Shown here: positions 36,776 through 47,748 of the stretch, one piece after another
Position numbering within the stretch: the first letter of the stretch is position 1
Layout: every line of letters starts with the position of its first letter
Source of the DNA: Dehalococcoidia bacterium
GTDB lineage: Bacteria > Chloroflexota > Dehalococcoidia > UBA2979
DNA length: 64,000 nucleotides
NCBI GenBank assembly: GCA_965219085.1
Contig: OZ244720.1
Span: 1,760,001 to 1,824,000 of the forward strand
Direction of reading: 5' to 3'
The notes under the pieces: generated by a model
What the model saw: the letters and a program-made list of their open reading frames with translations, nothing else
Told to the model about the DNA's origin: nothing
Databases searched by the model: none
Made by a program: the position numbers and the translations under genes

Positions 36776-39393
36776 CCAAGCGGCCACTCGAGGGCGTACG
36801 CGTACTGGACTTCACGTGGGTGCGCGCCGGGCCGTGGGCCACGCGCTGGCTGTCCGTGATGGGCGCCGAGGTGATCAAGGTCGAATGGCCGGACCCGCGG
36901 CTCGCCTTCACGGGCCGCACGGGCAGCCTCGGCGACGCGAGCGCGGGCCCGAACTCGAACGGCCACTTCAACGACCAGAACGCCGAGAAGCTGAGCATCA
37001 CCATCAACGTGCGCAGCCCGAAGGGCCTGCAGATCATCAAGGACCTGCTGCGCTCGACGGACATCGTGATCGAGAACTTCAGCGCCGGCGTGCTGCGCGA
37101 CTGGGGCCTCTCCTTCGACGAGATGCGCGCGATCAAGCCCGACCTCATCTACGTCTCGATGGCCGGCTTCGGCCAGACGGGGCCGCACGCGCACTACACG
37201 ACGTTCGGACCCTCGGCGCAGGCGCTGTCTGGCCTGACGTTCCTGTCGGGGCTGCCCGACGCGCCGCCCGCCGGGTGGGGCTGGTCGTACATGGACGACA
37301 CCGGCGGCATGCACGGCGCGATTGCCGCGCTGACCGCGCTTCACCACAGGCGCGCCACCGGCGAGGGCCAGCACGTCGACCTCTCGCAGGTCGCGACCGG
37401 CATGACGCTGACCGGCCCGGCGCTCCTCGACCTCAGCGCCAACGGGCGGGGGTCGAGGCGATCCGGCTACCCGCCGGGCAACCGCACGCACTGGCCGGGC
37501 AGCGAGCTGCTCAACAACTACCGCGGCCGCCACGCAGCGCCGCACAACGCCTACCGCACCCTGGGCGATGGACACCACGACTGGGCCGTCATCGCCTGCT
37601 TCTCCGACGAGGAGTGGCGCACCCTCGTCGACGTCATGGGCTCGCCCGAGTGGGCGACCGCCCCGCAGTTCGACACGCTGCGGGGTCGCCTCGCGCACCA
37701 GCTCGAGATCGACGAGGGCATCGCCGCGTGGGCGGCGACCATCGAGAAGTACGAGCTGGCCGACCGCTGCCAGGCGGCAGGCGTGCGCGCCGCGCCGGTG
37801 CAGAGCAACCAGGACCGCGTCGAGCACGACCCGCAGCTGCGCCACCGGGGGATGTTCGAGCCGGTGCTGCATCCTGTCATCGGCGAGCACGCGATGCAGC
37901 AGGCGCCGTTCAAGCTCTCAGCGACGCCGGTGCCGGTGGAGACGGGGGGGCCGCTGCTCGGAGCGGACAACGTCCCGATCCTCGGCGGCATGCTCGGCAT
38001 GACGTGGGACGAGATCGCCGGCGGTTACGAGGACGGCACGCTCTGGCCCGCGGGCCAGCCGGTCGAGCGCTACCTGCTGGAGCCGCCGGCGCAGATGCCG
38101 CCACCGCACGTCGAGGATCCACTCCCACCGGTGACGGTCGAGCGTCGCCACTCCGGCGGCGCCCTCGGCGACCTGCGCGTGATCGAGATTGGGGGCGAGA
38201 TCGGCGAGTGGGCCGCGAAGCTCATGGCCGACCAGGGCGCCGACGTGATCAAGATCGAGCCTCCCCGCGGCTCAGCCGAGCGCGAGATCGGCCCGTTCTA
38301 CGAGGACGTGCCGGACGCCGAGCGCAGCCTCCACTTCTGGCACTACAACACCAGCAAGCGCGGTATCACCCTGGACGTGACGACCGAGGACGGCCGCGCC
38401 CTGTTCCGCCGCCTCGTCGCCAGCGCGGACGTGCTCATCGACTCGCTGCCGCTCGGCGAGCTCGACTCGCTCGGGCTCGGGTACGAGGCGCTGAGCGCCG
38501 GCAACCCGGGCCTCATCATGTGCTCGATCACGCCGTTCGGGCAGAGCGGGCCGTGGACCGGCTGGCGCACCTCGGACCTCATCCAGCTCGCCGTAGGCGG
38601 GCAGATGGGGGAGTGTGGCTACGACGAGGTGGACGTGCCCGGACGCCCGCCGATCGCGCCCGGCGGCGGCAACGCCTGGCACATCGGCAGTCACTACGCC
38701 TACATCGCGATCATGGGCGCGGTGTTCCACCGCGGCGTCACCGGCGAGGGCCAGTTCATCGACGCCTCCGTCCACGATGCCTGCGCGCTCACGACCGAGG
38801 GCGGCGTGACGGAGTGGATCTACGGTCGGACGGTGCGCCAGCGACAGACCGGCCGCCACGCGTCGTCGAGGCCCACGCCGCCCTCGCAGTACCGCTGCGC
38901 CGACGGCATCTACGTGAACACGCTGGCGTTCCCGCTGCTCATGAACCCGGCGGGCATCCGCCGCCTCGCCGAGTGGTTCGACGCGCACGGCCTCGCCGAC
39001 GACCTGCTCGACGACAAGTACGCCGACCCGGAGGTCATCGCGGCGAACGAGCAGCACGTGAAGGACGTGCTGCGCGAGTTCATCGCCTCGCAGCCCTCGG
39101 AGACCGTCTACCACGAGGGCCAGAACCGCGGCTTCTCGATGGGCCCGGTGCGCGCACCCGAGGAGGTGATGGCGGACCAGCACTTCCACGAGCGCGGCTT
39201 CTTCGTCGAGGTCGACCACCCCGACATCGGCCGCACGCTCACGTACCCGGGCGCGCAGGCCGTCTACGGCGCGTCGCCGTGGCGCATCCAGCGCCGCGCG
39301 CCGCACATCGGCGAGCACAACGCCGAGGTCTACGGCGACCTCGGCCTCTCCACGCTGGAGCTGGCGGCGCTGCGCGAGGGCGGGGTGCTGTAG
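36772..39393 (+). CDS. Fused two-domain class III CoA-transferase
   Basis: N-half contains YMDDTGG; C-half contains GADVIKIEPP/NTSKRG/SITPFG; ATGA overlap with the previous gene. Confidence 0.9.
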   Translation: MTKRPLEGVRVLDFTWVRAGPWATRWLSVMGAEVIKVEWPDPRLAFTGRTGSLGDASAGPNSNGHFNDQNAEKLSITINVRSPKGLQIIKDLLRSTDIVIENFSAGVLRDWGLSFDEMRAIKPDLIYVSMAGFGQTGPHAHYTTFGPSAQALSGLTFLSGLPDAPPAGWGWSYMDDTGGMHGAIAALTALHHRRATGEGQHVDLSQVATGMTLTGPALLDLSANGRGSRRSGYPPGNRTHWPGSELLNNYRGRHAAPHNAYRTLGDGHHDWAVIACFSDEEWRTLVDVMGSPEWATAPQFDTLRGRLAHQLEIDEGIAAWAATIEKYELADRCQAAGVRAAPVQSNQDRVEHDPQLRHRGMFEPVLHPVIGEHAMQQAPFKLSATPVPVETGGPLLGADNVPILGGMLGMTWDEIAGGYEDGTLWPAGQPVERYLLEPPAQMPPPHVEDPLPPVTVERRHSGGALGDLRVIEIGGEIGEWAAKLMADQGADVIKIEPPRGSAEREIGPFYEDVPDAERSLHFWHYNTSKRGITLDVTTEDGRALFRRLVASADVLIDSLPLGELDSLGLGYEALSAGNPGLIMCSITPFGQSGPWTGWRTSDLIQLAVGGQMGECGYDEVDVPGRPPIAPGGGNAWHIGSHYAYIAIMGAVFHRGVTGEGQFIDASVHDACALTTEGGVTEWIYGRTVRQRQTGRHASSRPTPPSQYRCADGIYVNTLAFPLLMNPAGIRRLAEWFDAHGLADDLLDDKYADPEVIAANEQHVKDVLREFIASQPSETVYHEGQNRGFSMGPVRAPEEVMADQHFHERGFFVEVDHPDIGRTLTYPGAQAVYGASPWRIQRRAPHIGEHNAEVYGDLGLSTLELAALREGGVL

Positions 39394-40050
39394 CAGGGTG
39401 CTGAAAAAGGCGCGGCCATCTGGCAGGATAGCGAAGGCGGCGGGGGCGTAGCCTGGGAGGCAGCCCCGTGCGAGGCGACGCTGAGCGTCAGACCAACATG
39501 TTGCTGGCGGTGACGCCGGACTCCTTCATCCCGGACGACCACCCGATCCGACGCATCAAGCCGATCGTCGATGCAGCGCTGCAGCGGCTCTCGCCGCTCT
39601 TCGGCACGATGTACGCAACGAGCGGGCGGCCCTCGATCCCGCCCGAGCACCTGCTCAAGGCGAGCCTGCTGATCGCGCTCTACTCGATCCGCAGCGAGCG
39701 CCAGTTCTGCGAGCGGCTGCGCTACGACCTGCTCTTCAAGTGGTTCTTGGACCTCAACATCTCAGACGCGCCGTTCGACGCCTCGAGCTTCTCGAAGAAC
39801 CGCGAGCGCCTGCTCGCAGCCGATGTCGCGCGCGCCTTCTTCGCCGAGGTGGTGGCCGAGGCAAAGCGCCGCCGGCTGCTCTCGGCCGAGCACTTCACGG
39901 TGGACGGGACGCTGCTCGAGGCGTGGGCGTCGCTCAAGAGATGGCATGAGGGCCGGTCTCTTCCTCAAGGGGGATACTCGCCCCCGAAACAGCGGCCTCG
40001 ATGGGCCAGAACGGCTCTTTGCGGAGCTTTGACGAGGTAGGAGACCGGCC

Positions 40051-41139
40051 GTGCAGCAGGATACCGCAACGACGTGGAGCATTGAGGGCAAGGAAGGGTC
40101 AGGGGTCACCATCGGCCTCGACGTGGGCGACCGCTACACCCACGTCCACGCCCTCGGCGCCGGCGGGGAGGTGGTACGTGAGAGGCGCGTCCGCACCACG
40201 ACGGCAGCGCTGGGCATGGTGCTGACCGGCCTCCCCCCATCGCGGGTCGTGATCGAGGCGGGGCCGCGCTCGCCGTGGCTGAGCCGCCTCATGGCGGACC
40301 TCGGCCACGAGGTGGTCGTCGCCAACCCGCGCCAGGTCGCGCTGATCGCCGGCAGCCAGCGCAAGACCGACCGGCTCGACGCCGAGTGGCTGGCGCGGCT
40401 GGGGCGCTTCGACCCCCAGTTGCTCGCCCCGATCCGCCACCGCAGCGAGGCGAGCCAGCACGACCTCGCCGTGGTGCGCGCCCGCGACGCGCTGGTGCGC
40501 TCGCGGACGCTGCTCATCAACCACGTGCGCGGGGCCGTCAAGGCCTGCGGAGCCGCGTTGCCGTCGTGCACGGCCGAGGCGTTCCACCGCAAGACGGCGG
40601 ACCACATCCCCGACGGGCTGCGCCCGGCGCTGCTGCCGCTGGTGGAGGCGATCGGCGAGCTGACCGCGCGCATCGCGGCGGCCGGCCGCGAGATCGAGGC
40701 GTTGTGCGAGGCTCACTCCGAGACCGCGGCGCTGCGCCAGGTCACGGGCGTCGGGCCGATCACCGCGCTCACGTTCGTGCTGACGATCGAGGATCCTGGG
40801 CGCTTCCCGAAGAACCGCGAGGTCGGCGCCTACCTCGGGCTCGTGCCGAGGCAGCGCGACTCGGGCGAGCGCACGCCGCAACTCGGCATCGGCAAGAGCG
40901 GCGATCCGCACCTGCGGCGGCTGCTGGTGCAGGCCGCGCACTACATCCTCGGCCCCTTCGGGCCCGACACCGACCTGCGCCGCTGGGGTGAGCGCTACAC
41001 CGCTACGGGGGCCGGTAACGCGAAGAAGCGCGCCGTCGTGGGCGTCGCGAGGCGGCTGGCGGTGCTGCTGCTCGCGCTGTGGAAGACCGGCGAGGTCTAC
41101 GAGCCGTTGCGCGACGCCGCGGCGCAGGAGGCCGCGTAG
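40051..41139 (+). CDS. IS110/IS1111 DEDD recombinase-transposase
   Basis: IGLDVG, VIEAG, KTDRLDA, GVGPITA, YLGLVP..DSG; RBS GGAG. Confidence 0.95.
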   Translation: MQQDTATTWSIEGKEGSGVTIGLDVGDRYTHVHALGAGGEVVRERRVRTTTAALGMVLTGLPPSRVVIEAGPRSPWLSRLMADLGHEVVVANPRQVALIAGSQRKTDRLDAEWLARLGRFDPQLLAPIRHRSEASQHDLAVVRARDALVRSRTLLINHVRGAVKACGAALPSCTAEAFHRKTADHIPDGLRPALLPLVEAIGELTARIAAAGREIEALCEAHSETAALRQVTGVGPITALTFVLTIEDPGRFPKNREVGAYLGLVPRQRDSGERTPQLGIGKSGDPHLRRLLVQAAHYILGPFGPDTDLRRWGERYTATGAGNAKKRAVVGVARRLAVLLLALWKTGEVYEPLRDAAAQEAA

Positions 41140-41222
41140 CAAGGCGCGGCGCCGAAGCAACCGACCAGGAGAGCGAGACTGAGACGGACCTGGGAGGAGG
41201 CCCAGCAAACCAACCACTGCAC

Positions 41223-41370
41223 GTGATGCCGGGCAACGGGCGACTGCGAGGCGGTAGCGGTCCAACAAGGACGTTCAAGAGTTGGCAGCGCCCCCTGGAA
41301 GCAGGATGTGCCTTCATGCACCGGGCCCGATACGTGGCCCATCAAAGAGTGCGGATAGAAGCTCGGCACA
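41223..41370 (+). ncRNA. Predicted seekRNA/bridge RNA of the IS1111-type element (bounds approximate)
   Basis: Target matches at 41250-41258 and 41272-41281; donor matches at 41339-41343 and 41355-41361; closing stem TGCCGGGC / GCTCGGCA. Confidence 0.75.
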
Positions 41371-41631
41371 GGCTCCGTCAGGGGACATCACGAGCGGATC
41401 GGCCCCGATGTCGAGGAGCGCCACGCCCCGAGGAGGAGGCCGCCACGTCGGCCTTGCAGAAAGACCGTCCCTCATAGAAGCTACCGCCCGCGCGACGAGC
41501 AGGAGCCACCCCTGGGCGGACGCAACCCGGATGTCGACTTCCGCGGGCGGCGGCGCAGCCGCGATACGCATAGTTCCGGCACGGACCCGGAGGCGCGGCT
41601 GTACACGAAGACACCCCAGGACGCTAAGGGG

Positions 41632-42855
41632 TCAAGCAGCGAGGTCCTCGTGGGTGTAACGGTGTCCCCAGGCGGTCGTCTCGTCGTAGGGCAAGCGGCG
41701 CTTCAGGCAGCCATGTAGGTAGCCGACGAGACGGTTGCCGAGGGCGCGGAGCGCCTGGTGGTGGAGGTCGCCCGCGGCGCGCCGCCGATCGTAGAACTCG
41801 CGGCAGCCGGGGCTGGCCTGCAGGGAGCACAGCGCCCACTGGTCGACTGCGTCGTAGAGGCGCCGGTTGCGGACGAAGCGGGCTTTCACGGTGTGCTTGC
41901 GGCCGGATGCTACCGTCAGCGGCGACGTGCCGGCGTAGTTCCTGCGGGACTTCGCCGACTCGTAGCGTTCGGGGTCATCCCCGAACTCGCCAAGCACCCG
42001 GGCGCCGAGGACCACGCCGAGACCGGGCAGGGAACGGTAGATACCGGCGTCCGGGTGCTGCTCAAAATGGCTCGCGAGCTCGGCCTCGAGCTCCTTGATC
42101 TGACGGTTGATCTCGCCGATCACCCTCATTGCCGCACTGGTGCTCGCGGCGAATGCCTTGCTCACCGCGGGCGGAGCCTCGAGCTGCGGTGAGCGCAGCG
42201 CGTCGCGGACCTCGGCGGCGCGCCGCTCGATGTTGCGCCGGCGGCCGCCGCGGCGCAGCGCGGAGCGGATCTGGGTGATGCTCAGCCGCGCCGCCTCGCG
42301 CGGGCCAGGCGCTGTCGCCAGCACGCCCACCGCGTCGTCGTGCGCGAGGTCGGGGAAGGCCTCCAGCGCACCCGGAAAGTACTCCCTGAGCGCGTTGCGC
42401 AGCCGGTTGGTCTGGCGGACGCGGTCCCAGATCAACTGCTGGTGGGCGCGGGCGAGGATGCGCACCGCGGCGGCTTCGTCGCTGTCGCCGGCGACCTCCC
42501 GGTGGTTGTGCCGGTCGGTGCGGACGAGGTCGGCGAGCAGCTTCGCGTCGCCGGCGTCGGACTTGGCGCCGCCGACGTGGTGGCGGTCGCGGTAACGCGA
42601 CGCCGAGCGCGGGTTGATGGCGTAGACGTGGTAGCCGGCCGCGAGCAGTGCCGCGACCCAGGGGCCGCGGTCCGTCTCGATGCCGACGATCACCTCACCC
42701 GGTCCTGAGGCGTACCCGGCGACCAGTCCGTGCAGGGCAGTGATGCCCTCCACCCCTTCGGGCAGACGCCGGGCGGCGAGCCGCTCGCCCGCGTCGTTCA
42801 TGAGATGGACGTCGTGGTGGTCTTCGGACCAGTCATCGCCCAGGTACAAGGCCAT
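41632..42855 (-). CDS. IS110 DEDD recombinase-transposase
   Basis: YLGDDWS, GIETD, KSDAGDA, LPGLG..GARVLGE, AGTSP..ASG. Confidence 0.95.
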   Translation of the reverse strand: MALYLGDDWSEDHHDVHLMNDAGERLAARRLPEGVEGITALHGLVAGYASGPGEVIVGIETDRGPWVAALLAAGYHVYAINPRSASRYRDRHHVGGAKSDAGDAKLLADLVRTDRHNHREVAGDSDEAAAVRILARAHQQLIWDRVRQTNRLRNALREYFPGALEAFPDLAHDDAVGVLATAPGPREAARLSITQIRSALRRGGRRRNIERRAAEVRDALRSPQLEAPPAVSKAFAASTSAAMRVIGEINRQIKELEAELASHFEQHPDAGIYRSLPGLGVVLGARVLGEFGDDPERYESAKSRRNYAGTSPLTVASGRKHTVKARFVRNRRLYDAVDQWALCSLQASPGCREFYDRRRAAGDLHHQALRALGNRLVGYLHGCLKRRLPYDETTAWGHRYTHEDLAA

Positions 42856-42899
42856 CGTGTTTCAGTTCCTCTCCCGCTTCGCGCTGCTCGGTGCGACCC

Positions 42900-43090
42900 G
42901 GCGGGTTGGTTCCTGCGACGGCCTAATGGATCAGTGCTCGATGGCACGACACCCCATGAGTGCTGCAGAACAACCCGGAATACCAGCAGGGGCTCGGTCT
43001 TCGTGAAGCGGTCCAGAAGCCGCAGGGATCAGCTGAGAGCTCACCGGCTGGGCAGGGTCCAGAACCAGTCTGCCAGAGAACCTCTGGCCG
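42900..43090 (-). ncRNA. Predicted bridge RNA of the second IS110 (bounds approximate)
   Basis: Left target guide 43032-43024, right target guide 43007-42999, left donor guide 42956-42948, right donor guide 42929-42923; each pair is separated by a short hairpin. Confidence 0.8.
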
Positions 43091-43541
43091 CTGGTCGGGC
43101 CCCATTAGGGGTCGGGGCAGACGGCGAAGCTCAGCTACATGGGCCATCTGCTCACCGAGAACCGTCACGGTCTGGTGCTGGACGTGGAGTTGACCGAGGC
43201 GAACGGGTACGCCGAGCGCGAGGCGGCGGTCACGATGCTGGAGCGCAGCGTGAGCGGCTGCGGGACGCTGGGCGCCGACCGCGGCTACGACACGCGCGGC
43301 TTCGTGGCGGCGCTGCGCGCTCGCGGCGTGACGCCGCACGTGGCGCAGCACGACCGCGGCCGCCGCAGCGCCGTGGATGGGCGCACCACGCGGCATCGCG
43401 GCTACAGGCAGAGTCAGAAGCGGCGCAAGATCGTGGAGCAGGTCTTCGGCTGGATGAAGACCGTGGGCGGCGGGCGCAAGCTGCGTTTCGTGGGCCGCGA
43501 GCGCAACCGCTGTTGGCTGGAGCTCACCGCCGCCGCCTACA

Positions 43542-45176
43542 CCCGAATCCACCGATCGAAGCTTGACGGGGCGGGATGCCGGGCTGCCGGAGAGTTCGGC
43601 GGGCGTGCCGGTGTTCGCGGGGCGGGCCGGAGCCAGGAGCGGTCGCTCAGCGCAGCTCGGGGGCGCTGAGGGCGCGGGCGCAAGGCGTGCGCGGGCATGC
43701 TGGCGCGAGCCTCGGAGGGGGGCCGGCGCTGTGAGCGGTCGTCAGGCCGGGAGCGGTAACGCCCGTAGTCGCGCGAGCGCGGCTGCCAGCTGCCCGGCCC
43801 AGGGCCAGCGCCTGGGGAGGTGCAGGGTCCAGCGCCGGGCCGAGTGGGTGAGCCGTCCGGCGAGGGCGAAATAGCGCCGCCTGAGCGTCCTGGTGGTGAC
43901 GATTCCCTCGCCGAGCCCGAGCCGCGCCGTCCAGCGGGCGAGGTGTGCGCGATCACCTGCACCGCGAGCCATGCCGCGTTCGCGGCGAAGCGGCCCGAGG
44001 GGAGATGGTTGAGCCCGACGCCGTACTTGAGGTCGCGGATCGCGTTCTCGATCTCGGCGTGACGGCGATGGTCGGTCTCGAGCTCCAGCAGCTCCCCCGC
44101 GCGGTCGCTGATGAAGGCGTGGTAGCTGTACGTCGCGAAGAGCGCGAGCTGTGAGCCGGGCGTCGGCTGGACGCGCCGCACGATGAGCCGCACCGGGGTG
44201 GCGTCCTTCGCGTGCCGGAACGGGGTGTAGGTCGTCTCGGCGACAGCGGCGCCGCCCGGCAGCCAGTACGGGATCGGCGTCCAGTCCGCTTCCGGGATCG
44301 CCTCGATCAGCGTGCGTACGTTCGGTTGCTGGCGAATCGTGACCGAGAAGCGGACATCCAGCGCGCGGCAGACGGCGACGACAGCGTGGTTGTAGAAGCC
44401 GCTGTCGGCGCGCACCGTGAGCTGCCCGCTCGCCCCGGCGTCGCGCACCCGCGCCACCGTCTCACGCAGGAAGTGGGCGGCGCCGCGGGCAGTGTTGGCG
44501 CGGCCCTCGCGCAGCCGCGCCATCAGCACGTCACCCGTCCCGGCCGCAACGGCGAGCAGCGGGTGGTAGCCGTGCACGCCCGTGTAGCCGTGGTGGCGGG
44601 CGCCCTCCTTGGCCAGGCCGTAGGTCTCACAGATCGTCGAGTCGAGGTCGATCGTGAACGGCGCCGCGCCGGGTCCCGCCCCGGCCGCCCATGCGCGGGC
44701 GAGCAATGCGCGGCTGAGGCGGTCGAGCTGGCGGACGTGGCCCCAGCGGAAGCTGCGCAGGAAGGTCCCGAGGGTGGACGGCGCCTTGACCGTGCAACCC
44801 AGCACGCTCGCCGTCCCGCCGGCGCGCAACGCATCGGCGTCGTCGATGCAGTCACCGCCCGCGAGCGCCGAGGCGATGAGGGTCAGCAGCTTGTCGCCGG
44901 CGTTCGCCCGGCCCGGCGCGTCACCGAGGTCGACGCAGCTGTCGGCGAGCTCTTGCAGACCGAGATGCTGGGCGAGCGTGGCCGGGAGCAGCAGGCCCGC
45001 GTGGTCCACGAGGCGGTCGTCATCGAAGGCGATGTCTATCCGGTCGGGGTCGCTCGTTGGTAGCATCGAATGGGTGCTCCCTGTGGCTGTGACGTGATTC
45101 GGCAAAACCCATTGTCCCAGCTACAGCGGAGCACCCAACCGCAGCCGCTCGCACGCCCTTCTTCGGTGGATCAAGG
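43542..45176 (-). mobile_element. IS1380-family element (1635 bp) with 5-bp TSD CTACA
   Basis: IRs CCCGAATCCACCGA / TCGGTGGATCAAGG; CTACA at 43537-43541 and 45177-45181. Confidence 0.9.
43742..45066 (-). pseudogene. IS1380 transposase with a 1-bp frameshift near 43944
   Basis: IDLDST, GYHPL, VRADSGF, AEIENAIRDLKYG; the expected IAHNLARW continues as LARWTARLG..RLRALPLPA in another frame. Confidence 0.85.
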
Positions 45177-45508
45177 CTACAACCTCGTGCGCATGGCCAC
45201 GCTCGAGACCGCCGCGGCGTAGGCGCAGTGCGCCCTCCGCCCCGCCAGGGAGCCCTCAGAGGCCCCCGGGGGCCGGTCAGGAGGCCACGATCACGAACCC
45301 GGAGGCGGCTTGAAGCCGCCTCTCGCCACTCCGAGACCCCGGAAGGCGCTTCTTCAGCACCCTGCTAGCTCCGCCTGGCACGCCCCGTGCCGCCGTCATG
45401 TGGGGGCTCGTCGTCCCCGTCGCCGAGGTCAGGCAACCTCGATCGACGGCGATGCCTCGCGGCACGAAGGTGCGGGGGATCCGTCGCTCGGCGGCGACCG
45501 GTGGCGCC

Positions 45509-45684
45509 TCAGCCCCGAGCTTTGCGGGAGCGCGCGCCGTACATGATGCTCCCGTAGTAGCTGAATGACCGCCGTGCCTCGGCGTCCGCGAACGGATAGT
45601 CCGCGCCGAGCTGCCTCGCGGCGGCGAGCCCACTCACGAGGCAGGTTTCCTGACTGCTGATCAGCGTATGCGCGCCGCAGTGGG
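45509..45684 (-). pseudogene. C-terminal remnant resembling an FAD-dependent oxidoreductase
   Basis: HCGAHTLISSQETCLVSGLAAARQLGADYPF..YYGSIMYG resembles the end of amine-oxidase-like flavoproteins; no N-terminal part is present. Confidence 0.45.
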
Positions 45685-45795
45685 AGGTCGGCGATGAGGC
45701 GATTGCCGCGAGCGCTCGCGCGAGGCGCTCCCAGCCGCGAAGATGAAGCGACCACCGCGTACAGCCATCGCCACCGGAAGACCTCGCACCCACGC

Positions 45796-47748
45796 ATGAT
45801 CACGATCAACGACGTCACGATGCGCTTCGGCGGACAGCTCCTCTACGAGGGCGTCAACTGGCAGCTCCGGCCCGGCGGCCACTACGGCCTCGTCGGGGCG
45901 AACGGCTCCGGCAAGTCCACGCTGATTCGGCTCATGACCGGCGAACTCACACCGGACGCGGGCGCCATCGTCCAGCCGGCCGCGCTCCGCCTCGGCACGC
46001 TCGGCCAGGACCAGTTCCGGTTCAACGAGATGCGGCTGATCGACGTCGTGCTCATGGGCCGCCCCCAACTCTGGACCGCCATCGAGGAGCGGACGCGGCT
46101 GCTTGGCGCGTCCACGGAGACCCGGCCCGCGGAGACACTGACCGCCGAGGCCGGTGAGCGCCTCGCCGACCTCGAGCTGACGATCGCCGAGTTGCACGGG
46201 TACGAGGCGGAACCGCAGGCGGCCGCGCTGCTCGTCGGCCTCGGCATTGAACACGCGCGCCACGAGCGGCCGATGCGCGAGCTGTCGGGCGGCTTCCGGC
46301 TGCGCGTGCTGCTGGCGCAGGTGCTCTTCGGACAGCCCGACGTGCTGCTGCTCGACGAGCCGACGAACCACCTCGACATCGCCTCGATCCAGTGGCTCGA
46401 GGGCTACCTGCGCGAGTTCGCGGGCGCCTTCGTGGTCGTCTCGCACGACCGCCACTTCCTCAACGCCGTGTGCGACACGATCGCAGACCTCGACTACTCC
46501 GAGCTGCGGCTCTACACCGGCGACTACGACGCGTTCGAGCGCGCCAAGCACCTCACCGTCACCCAGAAGGACGCCGAGATCGCGCGCGCCGAGGGACGCA
46601 TCGAGGAGATGCAGCAGTTCATCGACCGCTTCCGCGCGAAGGCCACCAAGGCTCGCCAGGCATCCGCCCGCAAGAAGCAGGTCGAGAAGATCGAGATGCC
46701 CGAGGTCCGCCGCAGCTCGCGGCGCGCGCCCGGCTTCGCGTTCGGCCAGCGGCGCCCCTCGGGCCGCACGCCGCTGCGCGTCGCGGGCCTGGCGAAGAGC
46801 TACAACGGGCAGGCCGTGCTCGACGATGTCTCGTTCGAGTTGGAGCGCGGCGACCGGCTCGCGGTCGTCGGGCCCAACGGCGTCGGCAAGTCGACGCTGC
46901 TCAGGGTGGTCAGCGGCATCATCGAGGCCGACGGCGGTACGTCTGAGTTCGGCTACGAGACGCACCTCGGCTACTTCGCGCAGGATGTCGGCGACGAGTT
47001 GCACGGCGAGCAGCCCGTCCTCGACTGGCTGGGCGGCGCCAGCGGCGAGGCCGACCTCGGCAAGCTGCGCGCGGCCCTCGGCCGCGTGCTCTTCAGCGGC
47101 GACGACGTGCACAAGCGGATCGGGAGCCTCAGCGGCGGGGAAGCCGCGCGGCTACTGCTGGCCGCGCTGATGCTGCGCCGGCCGAACCTGCTCGTCCTCG
47201 ACGAGCCCACCAACCACCTCGACCTCGAGGGCCGCGAGGCGCTGATGCACGCGCTCCGCGACTACCCGGGCACGCTCGTCTTCGTCAGCCACGACCGTCA
47301 CTTCGTCTCCAACGTCGGGACCCGTGTGCTGGTGCTGCGCCCCGATGGCTTCGAGGACGTGGCGGGCGCCTACGAGGAGTACCTCGAACGCCGCGGCGGC
47401 GACTTCCTGTCGACCAGCATCGCCGCGCCGCGGACCCGGCGGAGCGGGAACGGCGCAGGCAAACAGCACGGCAGGCACGCTCGGGCCGCGAGCAAGGAGC
47501 AGCGCCGGCGCCAGGCGCGGCTCGCTCGCCGCGTCGAGGAGCTGGAGCGCGAGATCGCCGAGGTCGAGGCGCAACTGGCCCCGATCGCCGCGCGCTTCGC
47601 CAACAACGACTACTACTCGCGCGTCTCGCTCGACGAGATCCGCGCCGACGAGGGCCGCCAGATCGAGTTGCAGACCCGCCTCGACGCCGCGATGCAGGCG
47701 TGGGAGGCCGCGGCACACCAACTCGAAGCCACCGAGGCGCCGGTCTAA
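45796..47748 (+). CDS. ABC-F family ATPase
   Basis: Two ABC cassettes (GANGSGKST, LSGG, DEPTNHLD twice), linker FIDRFRAKATKARQA, C-terminal coiled coil, no TM segments. Confidence 0.92.
   Translation: MITINDVTMRFGGQLLYEGVNWQLRPGGHYGLVGANGSGKSTLIRLMTGELTPDAGAIVQPAALRLGTLGQDQFRFNEMRLIDVVLMGRPQLWTAIEERTRLLGASTETRPAETLTAEAGERLADLELTIAELHGYEAEPQAAALLVGLGIEHARHERPMRELSGGFRLRVLLAQVLFGQPDVLLLDEPTNHLDIASIQWLEGYLREFAGAFVVVSHDRHFLNAVCDTIADLDYSELRLYTGDYDAFERAKHLTVTQKDAEIARAEGRIEEMQQFIDRFRAKATKARQASARKKQVEKIEMPEVRRSSRRAPGFAFGQRRPSGRTPLRVAGLAKSYNGQAVLDDVSFELERGDRLAVVGPNGVGKSTLLRVVSGIIEADGGTSEFGYETHLGYFAQDVGDELHGEQPVLDWLGGASGEADLGKLRAALGRVLFSGDDVHKRIGSLSGGEAARLLLAALMLRRPNLLVLDEPTNHLDLEGREALMHALRDYPGTLVFVSHDRHFVSNVGTRVLVLRPDGFEDVAGAYEEYLERRGGDFLSTSIAAPRTRRSGNGAGKQHGRHARAASKEQRRRQARLARRVEELEREIAEVEAQLAPIAARFANNDYYSRVSLDEIRADEGRQIELQTRLDAAMQAWEAAAHQLEATEAPV

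Follow-up and report, generated by a model that had tools for sequence, protein, structure and literature searches.

An IS110-group insertion sequence in an IS5-family transposase gene of a Dehalococcoidia bacterium, with a predicted bridge RNA of the IS621 type

What is known of RNA guidance in the IS110 family comes almost entirely from IS621 and a few Proteobacterial elements. In IS621, each left guide has the same sense as the top strand and pairs with the bottom strand, while each right guide has the opposite sense (PMC11208160); the catalytic residues of its recombinase are D11, E60, D102, D105 and S241, and D11, D102, D105 and S241-G242 were shown to be essential (Hiraizumi et al., 2024; PMC11208158). 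The bridge RNA of IS621 is expressed from a promoter that spans the junction of its right and left ends (PMC13626964). Elements of the IS1111 group encode the guide RNA 3′ of the gene, within the right end, and have long sub-terminal inverted repeats; bridge RNAs have been predicted in 85.7% of the IS110-group elements in ISfinder (Durrant et al., 2024; PMC11208160). Here we describe a complete IS110-group element in a stretch of 64,000 nucleotides from a Dehalococcoidia bacterium (contig OZ244720.1, positions 1,760,001 to 1,824,000), referred to below as the window; all coordinates are those of the window unless a contig is named. The element provides a natural example from high-GC, mostly uncultured bacteria and, judged by its sequence and by analogy, very probably works as an IS621-type bridge recombinase system.

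According to the mechanism that we propose, the 253-nt left end would encode a bridge RNA that opens with a 5′ stem-loop and continues with two binding loops, one for the target and one for the donor. The donor-binding loop would use UGGGGUGUC and CCAUUAG to recognise the excised circle where its right and left ends are joined. With this RNA bound, the DEDD/Ser recombinase would then exchange strands at the CT core and insert the element into CCGACCC-CT-TCGTGTA in an IS5-family transposase gene, without further duplication. We infer both that a circle is formed and that changed guides retarget the element.

The recombinase and the limits of its element

The 407-aa recombinase matches two Pfam domains, PF01548 (128.4 bits) and PF02371 (43.5 bits), as well as the NCBIfam model NF033542, 'IS110 family RNA-guided transposase' (191.6 bits; cut-off 140). 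Among proteins of known structure, only the IS621 recombinase is related to it (8wt6, E 5.6e-08), and in the alignment of the two D8, D100, D103 and S317-G318 stand opposite D11, D102, D105 and S241-G242 of IS621. The remaining acidic residue, E60 (in VGIETD), corresponds to IS621 E60 only after a three-residue shift of the phmmer alignment, an assignment made by eye from the I-E-A/T motif. With this shift, the putative DEDD and Ser-Gly catalytic residues are all retained.

The limits of the element can be read from IS5 copies that lack it. Eight such copies have a single CT at the corresponding place and occupied copies read CT-element-CT, so that the insertion comprises exactly 41611-43108 and the core is CT, which bears out the core and junctions proposed in a first-pass annotation of the window. 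At the left end, CCGACCC-CT is followed by AATGG..., and at the right end ...TGGGGTGT is followed by CT-TCGTGTA. One metagenome contig joins position 41610 to 43113, with four letters of an empty IS5 variant between them. There are no terminal inverted repeats and no duplication beyond the 2-bp core, and the non-coding ends are unequal, the left being 253 nt long and the right reaching only 21 nt beyond the stop codon. The interrupted gene encodes an IS5-family transposase, an uninterrupted copy of which yields a 358-aa protein that passes NF033581 (254 bits against a cut-off of 140); the target does, as had been claimed, lie within the transposase gene of another transposon.

The genome, a single 3.3-Mb contig (C1), holds six copies of the element at 99.8% identity or higher, and the full 407-aa open reading frame is present in all six. 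Five copies occupy the same IS5-family site in the same orientation. The sixth (C1:166284-167780) lies elsewhere, outside IS5, at GGGGATCT-CT-TCGTGGAT, a site which shares GATC..CT-TCGTG with the IS5 site. Unrelated sites for the other copies had been named as a finding that would speak against guided insertion; what was found instead is one shared site and one related to it. With its reading frame and putative catalytic residues preserved, the element is what the first reading had taken it for, an intact IS110-type insertion sequence, and apparently a recently active one.

Guide segments in the left end

The predicted bridge RNA is read 5′ to 3′ on the minus strand, on which all guide coordinates are given (Table 1). 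The four guide segments lie exactly where they had first been placed, and their matches of 7/9, 8/9, 9/9 and 7/7 to the left target, right target, right end and left end were reproduced, together with the hairpins GCGG..CCGC (43023-43008) and GTGC..GCAC (42947-42934) that separate the two guides of each pair. All four segments follow the published strand polarity of IS621, and both mismatches of the left target guide set a guide U against a bottom-strand G. How often such matches arise by chance was estimated from 20,000 mononucleotide shuffles of the left end. A match at least as good as the observed one was reached in 331 shuffles for the right target (1.7%), in 20 for the left donor (0.1%) and in 177 for the right donor (0.9%), and in none of the 20,000 were all four reached jointly. 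Every testable feature of the IS621-type layout of target loop, donor loop and CT core is present except for the core coverage of the left donor guide: three of the four guides cover CT, and the left donor guide pairs with the C alone, since the RNA base that follows is a G, which begins the hairpin stem and does not vary among 33 relatives. Across guide classes the left target guide ends in U, C or A opposite the second core position, although the core is CT everywhere, and the left donor guide never pairs with that position; the bottom-strand guides of this clade therefore seem able to do without the second core base.

A comparison with relatives carries the argument that these segments are guides. 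A scan of one genome per species yielded 80 loci at 66-86% protein identity, mostly from metagenome-assembled Dehalococcoidia genomes and in some cases from Actinomycetota, including Smaragdicoccus. Their left ends share a scaffold that consists of GGTGAGC(A/T)C and a variable segment of about 11-15 bases, then a hairpin with a 4-bp stem, followed by nine variable bases ending in AG and then by AC(C/T)G..GCCCC; the donor loop and both element ends are near invariant. When the variable segments and the flanks were extracted (two loci, L007 and L071, without a match to the scaffold and a few without one flank were counted as missing), the 80 loci fell into 22 guide classes, one of which, for example, targets CAACAAC-CT-ACGT, and 62 distinct insertion instances. 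With the core excluded, left guides match their own flanks at 5.05 of 7 positions and the flanks of other classes at 2.51 of 7, and right guides at 4.85 of 7 and 2.49 of 7, respectively. Redealing the flank sets among the classes gave a score of 114.9 ± 10.0 against the observed 217.7, which none of 10,000 permutations reached; several guide classes have a repeated target in common, and this can only reduce the power of the test. Guide-flank covariation in homologs, set beforehand as a test that could refute the guide assignment, is thus present. The further claim that the system is reprogrammable is borne out as far as comparison goes, in that nature appears to have placed 22 guide classes on one scaffold.

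The scaffold also shows the paired changes of a folded RNA. A consensus fold from a MAFFT alignment of 33 distinct left ends closes the target loop with a basal stem of 15 pairs and places a hairpin of four pairs inside the loop, immediately 3′ of the left target guide, and 12 of the fold's 40 predicted pairs are changed on both sides (one pair, for example, is A-U in 24 sequences and U-A in 8). Because the covarying stems enclose the guide positions, the guides fall in internal loops and not, as might have told against them, in stems. The donor hairpin stem never varies and is uninformative on covariation. The basal stem of the donor loop is missing from the alignment-based consensus fold, even after removal of the first 12 columns, because MAFFT misplaced a compensating one-base indel. 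In an alignment-free test this stem forms in all 25 distinct arm pairs, with own arms pairing at -19.3 kcal/mol and crossed arms at -17.1 kcal/mol, and none of 5,000 permutations reached the observed total; folds of single sequences likewise place a closing donor stem in all distinct segments shown except that of L054. The consensus fold also contained a helix between CCAUUAG and the first seven bases of the element, which we rejected as a helix, as it represents the complementarity of guide and donor. This pairing suggests that the RNA starts downstream of those seven bases; the start is predicted at about 7-12 nt beyond TCTAAT (the candidate -10 described below), which would leave CTAATGG outside the RNA.

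Handshake guides have been described for IS621 (PMC11208158), and candidates stand at the matching positions here. In the target loop, GT is faced by AC in 66 loci and by AU in seven. In the donor loop, G lies opposite C in 73 loci, G opposite T in two and C opposite G in two, where the switch from G to C occurred within one lineage and counts as one event.

Could the site instead be chosen by the protein, or by similarity between element ends and target DNA, so that the left-end segments are not RNA guides at all? An account of this kind would fit with the absence of a left-end RNA from the Rfam scan and the metatranscriptome contigs, and with the left half of the sixth site, GGGGATCT, which resembles the right end of the element, GGGGTGT. 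It does not explain why the variable segments stand at fixed places on a conserved and covarying RNA scaffold, why they change with the flanks in 22 classes, why one guide of each pair is same-sense and the other antisense exactly as in IS621 (PMC11208160), or why the element ends stay constant while the targets change. We consider it barely credible.

Table 1. Coordinates of the element, its gene, its target and the predicted features of its RNA
Feature	Position	Strand	Remarks
Complete IS110-group element	41611..43108	minus	1498 bp, one CT core copy (43108-43107) included; bounds from empty IS5 sites
Recombinase gene, 407 aa	41632..42855	minus	PF01548, PF02371, NF033542; putative catalytic D8, E60, D100, D103, S317-G318
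Left target half CCGACCC	43109..43115	minus	Within IS5 transposase gene, antisense to gene
Second CT core copy (41610-41609) and right target half TCGTGTA	41602..41610	minus
Left non-coding end, 253 nt, encoding the predicted bridge RNA	42856..43108	minus
5′ stem-loop (ACCAG..GCCAG / CTGGC..CTGGT)	43064..43095	minus	Minimum-free-energy fold
Target-loop basal stem, 5′ arm	43037..43053	minus	Consensus fold with compensatory changes; extra C of this copy alone in 43050-43052
Left target guide CUGAUCCCU (DNA CTGATCCCT)	43024..43032	minus	Predicted; same sense as left target and core; pairs bottom strand; 7/9
Target-loop hairpin GCGG-CUUCUGGA-CCGC	43008..43023	minus	3 of 4 pairs changed on both sides among 33 relatives
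Right target guide UUCACGAAG (DNA TTCACGAAG)	42999..43007	minus	Predicted; pairs top strand CTTCGTG(T)A; 8/9
Target-loop handshake guide AC	42997..42998	minus	Candidate; complementary to last two element bases GT before core
Target-loop basal stem, 3′ arm	42982..42995	minus	Consensus fold
Donor-loop basal stem, 5′ arm	42963..42978	minus	Folds
Left donor guide UGGGGUGUC (DNA TGGGGTGTC)	42948..42956	minus	Predicted; 9/9 to right end and first core base
Donor-loop hairpin GUGC..GCAC	42934..42947	minus	Stem invariant in relatives
Right donor guide CCAUUAG (DNA CCATTAG)	42923..42929	minus	Predicted; 7/7 antisense match to CTAATGG, left end
Donor-loop handshake guide G	42922	minus	Candidate; complementary to target base directly 5′ of core
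Donor-loop basal stem, 3′ arm	42901..42917	minus	Folds
TTGACC, candidate -35	41630..41635	minus	Overlaps stop codon; motif in 71 related loci

Target choice, expression and competing explanations

To see how well the two target guides single out the occupied sites, the six copies were removed in silico and the 335,608 CT sites on both strands of the genome were scored against them. The best identity, 11/14, is found at 11 sites, five of which are the occupied IS5 sites, which rank joint-first; with G:U and G:T pairs allowed, 13/14 is reached at six sites, five of them occupied. The site of the sixth copy scores 10/14, which is equalled or exceeded by 77 sites. Its right half fits the guide at 6/7, and its left half fits in GATC only and resembles the right end of the element (GGGG..T), which recalls the 'half-match' off-target insertions of IS621 that are reported in a recent preprint (10.64898/2026.08.31.748434). 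Empty IS5 sites of the common variant differ from the occupied ones by two positions of the left half (4 and 5) and one of the right half (2). These three differences within the 16-bp site compare with four in the surrounding 39 bp, and they are too few to tell whether differences cluster in the target as escape mutations would.

The copies of the element differ from one another by 0-2 of 1498 bases, and their hosts by up to 6.7%. Two of the IS5 hosts, at C1:2245423 and C1:3089035, have flanks that differ from each other and from those of the window copy by 10-26 of 390 bases, and these diverged flanks, together with the site outside IS5, imply at least four independent insertions, which by their sequences are recent and all younger than the divergence of their IS5 hosts. 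It might be argued that the preference for IS5 is merely historical, a single insertion having been spread by transposition of IS5 or by duplication of a composite, with the guide matches incidental. Such a history would suit the window copy and those at C1:3276654 and C1:1202645, which show 0 differences in the 390 bp of flank and all carry a second IS110-family element, described below. It does not suit the hosts at C1:2245423 and C1:3089035, which lack that second element and are diverged as stated while the elements within them are nearly identical, nor the sixth copy, which sits outside IS5 at a site with GATC..CT-TCGTG in common. The joint-first rank that the guides give to the IS5 site, and the covariation of guides and flanks in relatives, also stand against it. 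Historical spread is therefore already largely refuted as an explanation, and we hold it to be highly improbable.

How the RNA would be made is suggested by the ends of the element. In the circle, the hexamer TTGACC near the right end would stand 18 nt from TCTAAT, which is composed of T(41611), where the right end stops, and CTAAT(43108-43104), the core with the three bases that follow it in the left end. Both ends were found at 71 loci, and these have the arrangement TTGACN-17/18-TCTAAT. As in IS621, the bridge RNA is probably made from a promoter formed at the circle junction.

Against the proposal that the element is an IS621-type bridge recombinase system stand a number of observations, which are best considered together. 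The 7/9 match of the left target guide, taken alone, is at chance level, being reached in 10,390 of the 20,000 shuffles (52%). Folded as a single sequence, the left end is no stabler than its shuffles (z = -0.30), and it has no match in Rfam 15 (38000-46000, E<=1). A scan of the integrated element for promoters and terminators found none, including no sigma-70-like promoter. Within the junction promoter, the candidate -10 hexamer TCTAAT has C at the usually conserved second position; the candidate -35 overlaps the stop codon, and since both hexamers are constrained by that codon and by recombination, their conservation is not independent evidence for a promoter. Four sequencing runs, two of them metatranscriptome sets, were examined as contigs. 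None of these contigs contains the joint of a circle junction, though contigs cannot exclude one, and the sole joint across the element is that of an empty variant IS5 site, in the run X1. The two metatranscriptome sets yielded only parts of the gene (90-99% identity, from relatives) and nothing over the left end, a result which is evidence neither for nor against expression. As to target choice, the six sites outside the occupied set that reach 11/14 are empty, and the three of these that were examined all lie outside IS5; the occupied IS5 sites score 11/14 (13/14 with wobble) and the seven empty sites of the common IS5 variant 10/14 (12/14). With occupied and empty IS5 sites one pair apart, and with empty sites at 11/14, the score alone does not explain occupancy: either left-half position 4 weighs more than a plain count suggests, or history contributes. 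The three copies with identical flanks, moreover, may be one composite copied three times.

One further point on this side concerns the window copy itself, which differs from the others by two private changes, a synonymous one at 42703 and an extra C in the C-run at 43050-43052, within the basal stem of the target loop. The family could be active and this copy impaired by its extra C, so that it moves only when the other five provide RNA in trans. In favour of this, the extra C is absent from those five copies, from all 32 aligned relatives and from the metagenome contigs; against it, the C adds no more than a single bulge to the outer end of the 15-pair stem and leaves every guide segment as it was. 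We think impairment of this copy unlikely.

Neighbouring elements and comparison with known systems

The same IS5 copy contains a second IS110-family element (39941-41480, plus strand) with a gene for a 362-aa protein (40051-41139; NF033542, 240 bits). Its layout is of the IS1111 type, with a left end of 110 nt, a right end of 341 nt and the sub-terminal inverted repeats ATGAGGG/CCCTCAT. Within the right end, TCAAGAG (41275) reads in the sense of the left flank, GCGGTAGC (41251) is the antisense of the right flank, and ATAGAAGCT (41355) combines element end and flank; the second element seems to carry a guide RNA of its own, directed against another site of the IS5 gene. Five copies share at least 99.8% identity, and there are further relatives at about 89%. 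On the other side, a gene for a 522-aa transposase (43537-45105, minus strand; PF13701, DDE_Tnp_1_4), whose sequence is repeated in the genome, starts where the window IS5 copy stops matching other IS5 copies (after 43541). At least four insertion sequences are nested in this region. The sole Rfam match in 38000-46000 at E<=1 is to Ms_AS-4, an Actinobacteria sRNA (41950-42031, plus strand; 63.9 bits, gathering score 50, E 2.2e-08). The match covers the part of the recombinase gene that encodes the conserved PGLG...GEFGDDP, on the opposite strand, and may represent a conserved antisense RNA or mere coding conservation.

Some of the related loci deserve mention in their own right. Most (L014-L020, L031-L052, L055-L056, L062-L077 and others) sit in one repeated palindrome of the type CCCCTCACCCCCGCC-CT-CTCCCGCGAGGGGAGAGGG, which looks like a REP-type repeat of the relatives' genomes. 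A relative with 79% protein identity and other target guides (L053/L054) is inserted in sense orientation in the gene of a homologous IS5 transposase, at residue 344 of its 358; this transposase is 68% identical to the one in the genome studied, and the flanks of the inserted relative were examined at about 700-1753 and after 3270. This locus is, on its sequence, a second and independent case of IS5-gene targeting in the clade. Within the genome studied, a relative of the gene only, at 83% DNA identity (L007, C1:893433-894622), has no bridge-RNA scaffold that could be found upstream, and some 110 bp before it lies the end of a relative of the second IS110-family element; L007 is probably the truncated remnant of an element within another nest of insertion sequences.

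It is tempting to see in these arrangements an RNA-guided conflict between transposons, in which IS5 is held in check by IS110 elements as its hyperparasites and escapes them through mutation of the target site. All five IS5 copies with a matching site are interrupted, and all eight copies free of the element differ at guide-contact positions, mostly through synonymous changes. In addition, two unrelated IS110-family elements have guides, or apparent guides, against two sites of the same IS5 gene, and the 79%-identical relative targets a third site in a homologous IS5 of another genome. We regard this idea as doubtful; were it true, IS5 would be more than a harmless multicopy landing pad.

The element leaves the understanding of the mechanism unchanged: that mechanism is already known, and the family is already annotated as RNA-guided (NF033542). 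What it offers are two sets of specificity data, one in the 22 natural guide classes on a single conserved scaffold and the other in the occupied and empty variants of one target within a single genome, and both bear on the mismatches and G:U pairs that are tolerated and on the weight of the base adjacent to the core. Our search found no literature on this orthologue; the supplementary bridge-RNA tables of PMC11208160, which may list the element or its relatives, lay outside that search.

Of the known systems, IS621 of E. coli is the closest in design. The two share a DEDD RuvC-like domain and a Tnp domain with Ser-Gly, the CT core, a long left and a short right end, and a left-end RNA with two loops that each contain a bottom-strand and a top-strand guide, together with the positions of the handshake guides (PMC11208160, PMC11208158). 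The promoter across the joined right and left ends of IS621 (PMC13626964) also has a candidate counterpart here. The IS1111 group uses the same recombinase family and the same guide logic (PMC11208160), and its layout is that of the neighbour at 39941-41480 and not of the element studied. From IS621 the element differs in several respects. The IS621 protein has 326 aa and the present one 407 aa, with only remote similarity between them (E 5.6e-08 to 8wt6), and the host is a high-GC bacterium of a different phylum, with the closest relatives of the element in metagenome-assembled Dehalococcoidia. The left donor guide pairs with the first core base only, and the left target guide ends in a base that differs among relatives. 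IS621, moreover, targets a REP element, whereas the present element targets the coding sequence of a transposase. Targeting of another mobile element has a parallel in IS4321 and IS5075, members of the IS1111 group of the IS110 family, which insert in the terminal inverted repeats of Tn21-family transposons; the target described here lies instead inside the reading frame of the IS5 transposase. ISPpu10, ISPpu9 and other REP-targeting IS110 elements likewise have multicopy targets, as do many of the relatives in our set, whereas the multicopy target of the present element is the coding sequence of an insertion sequence.

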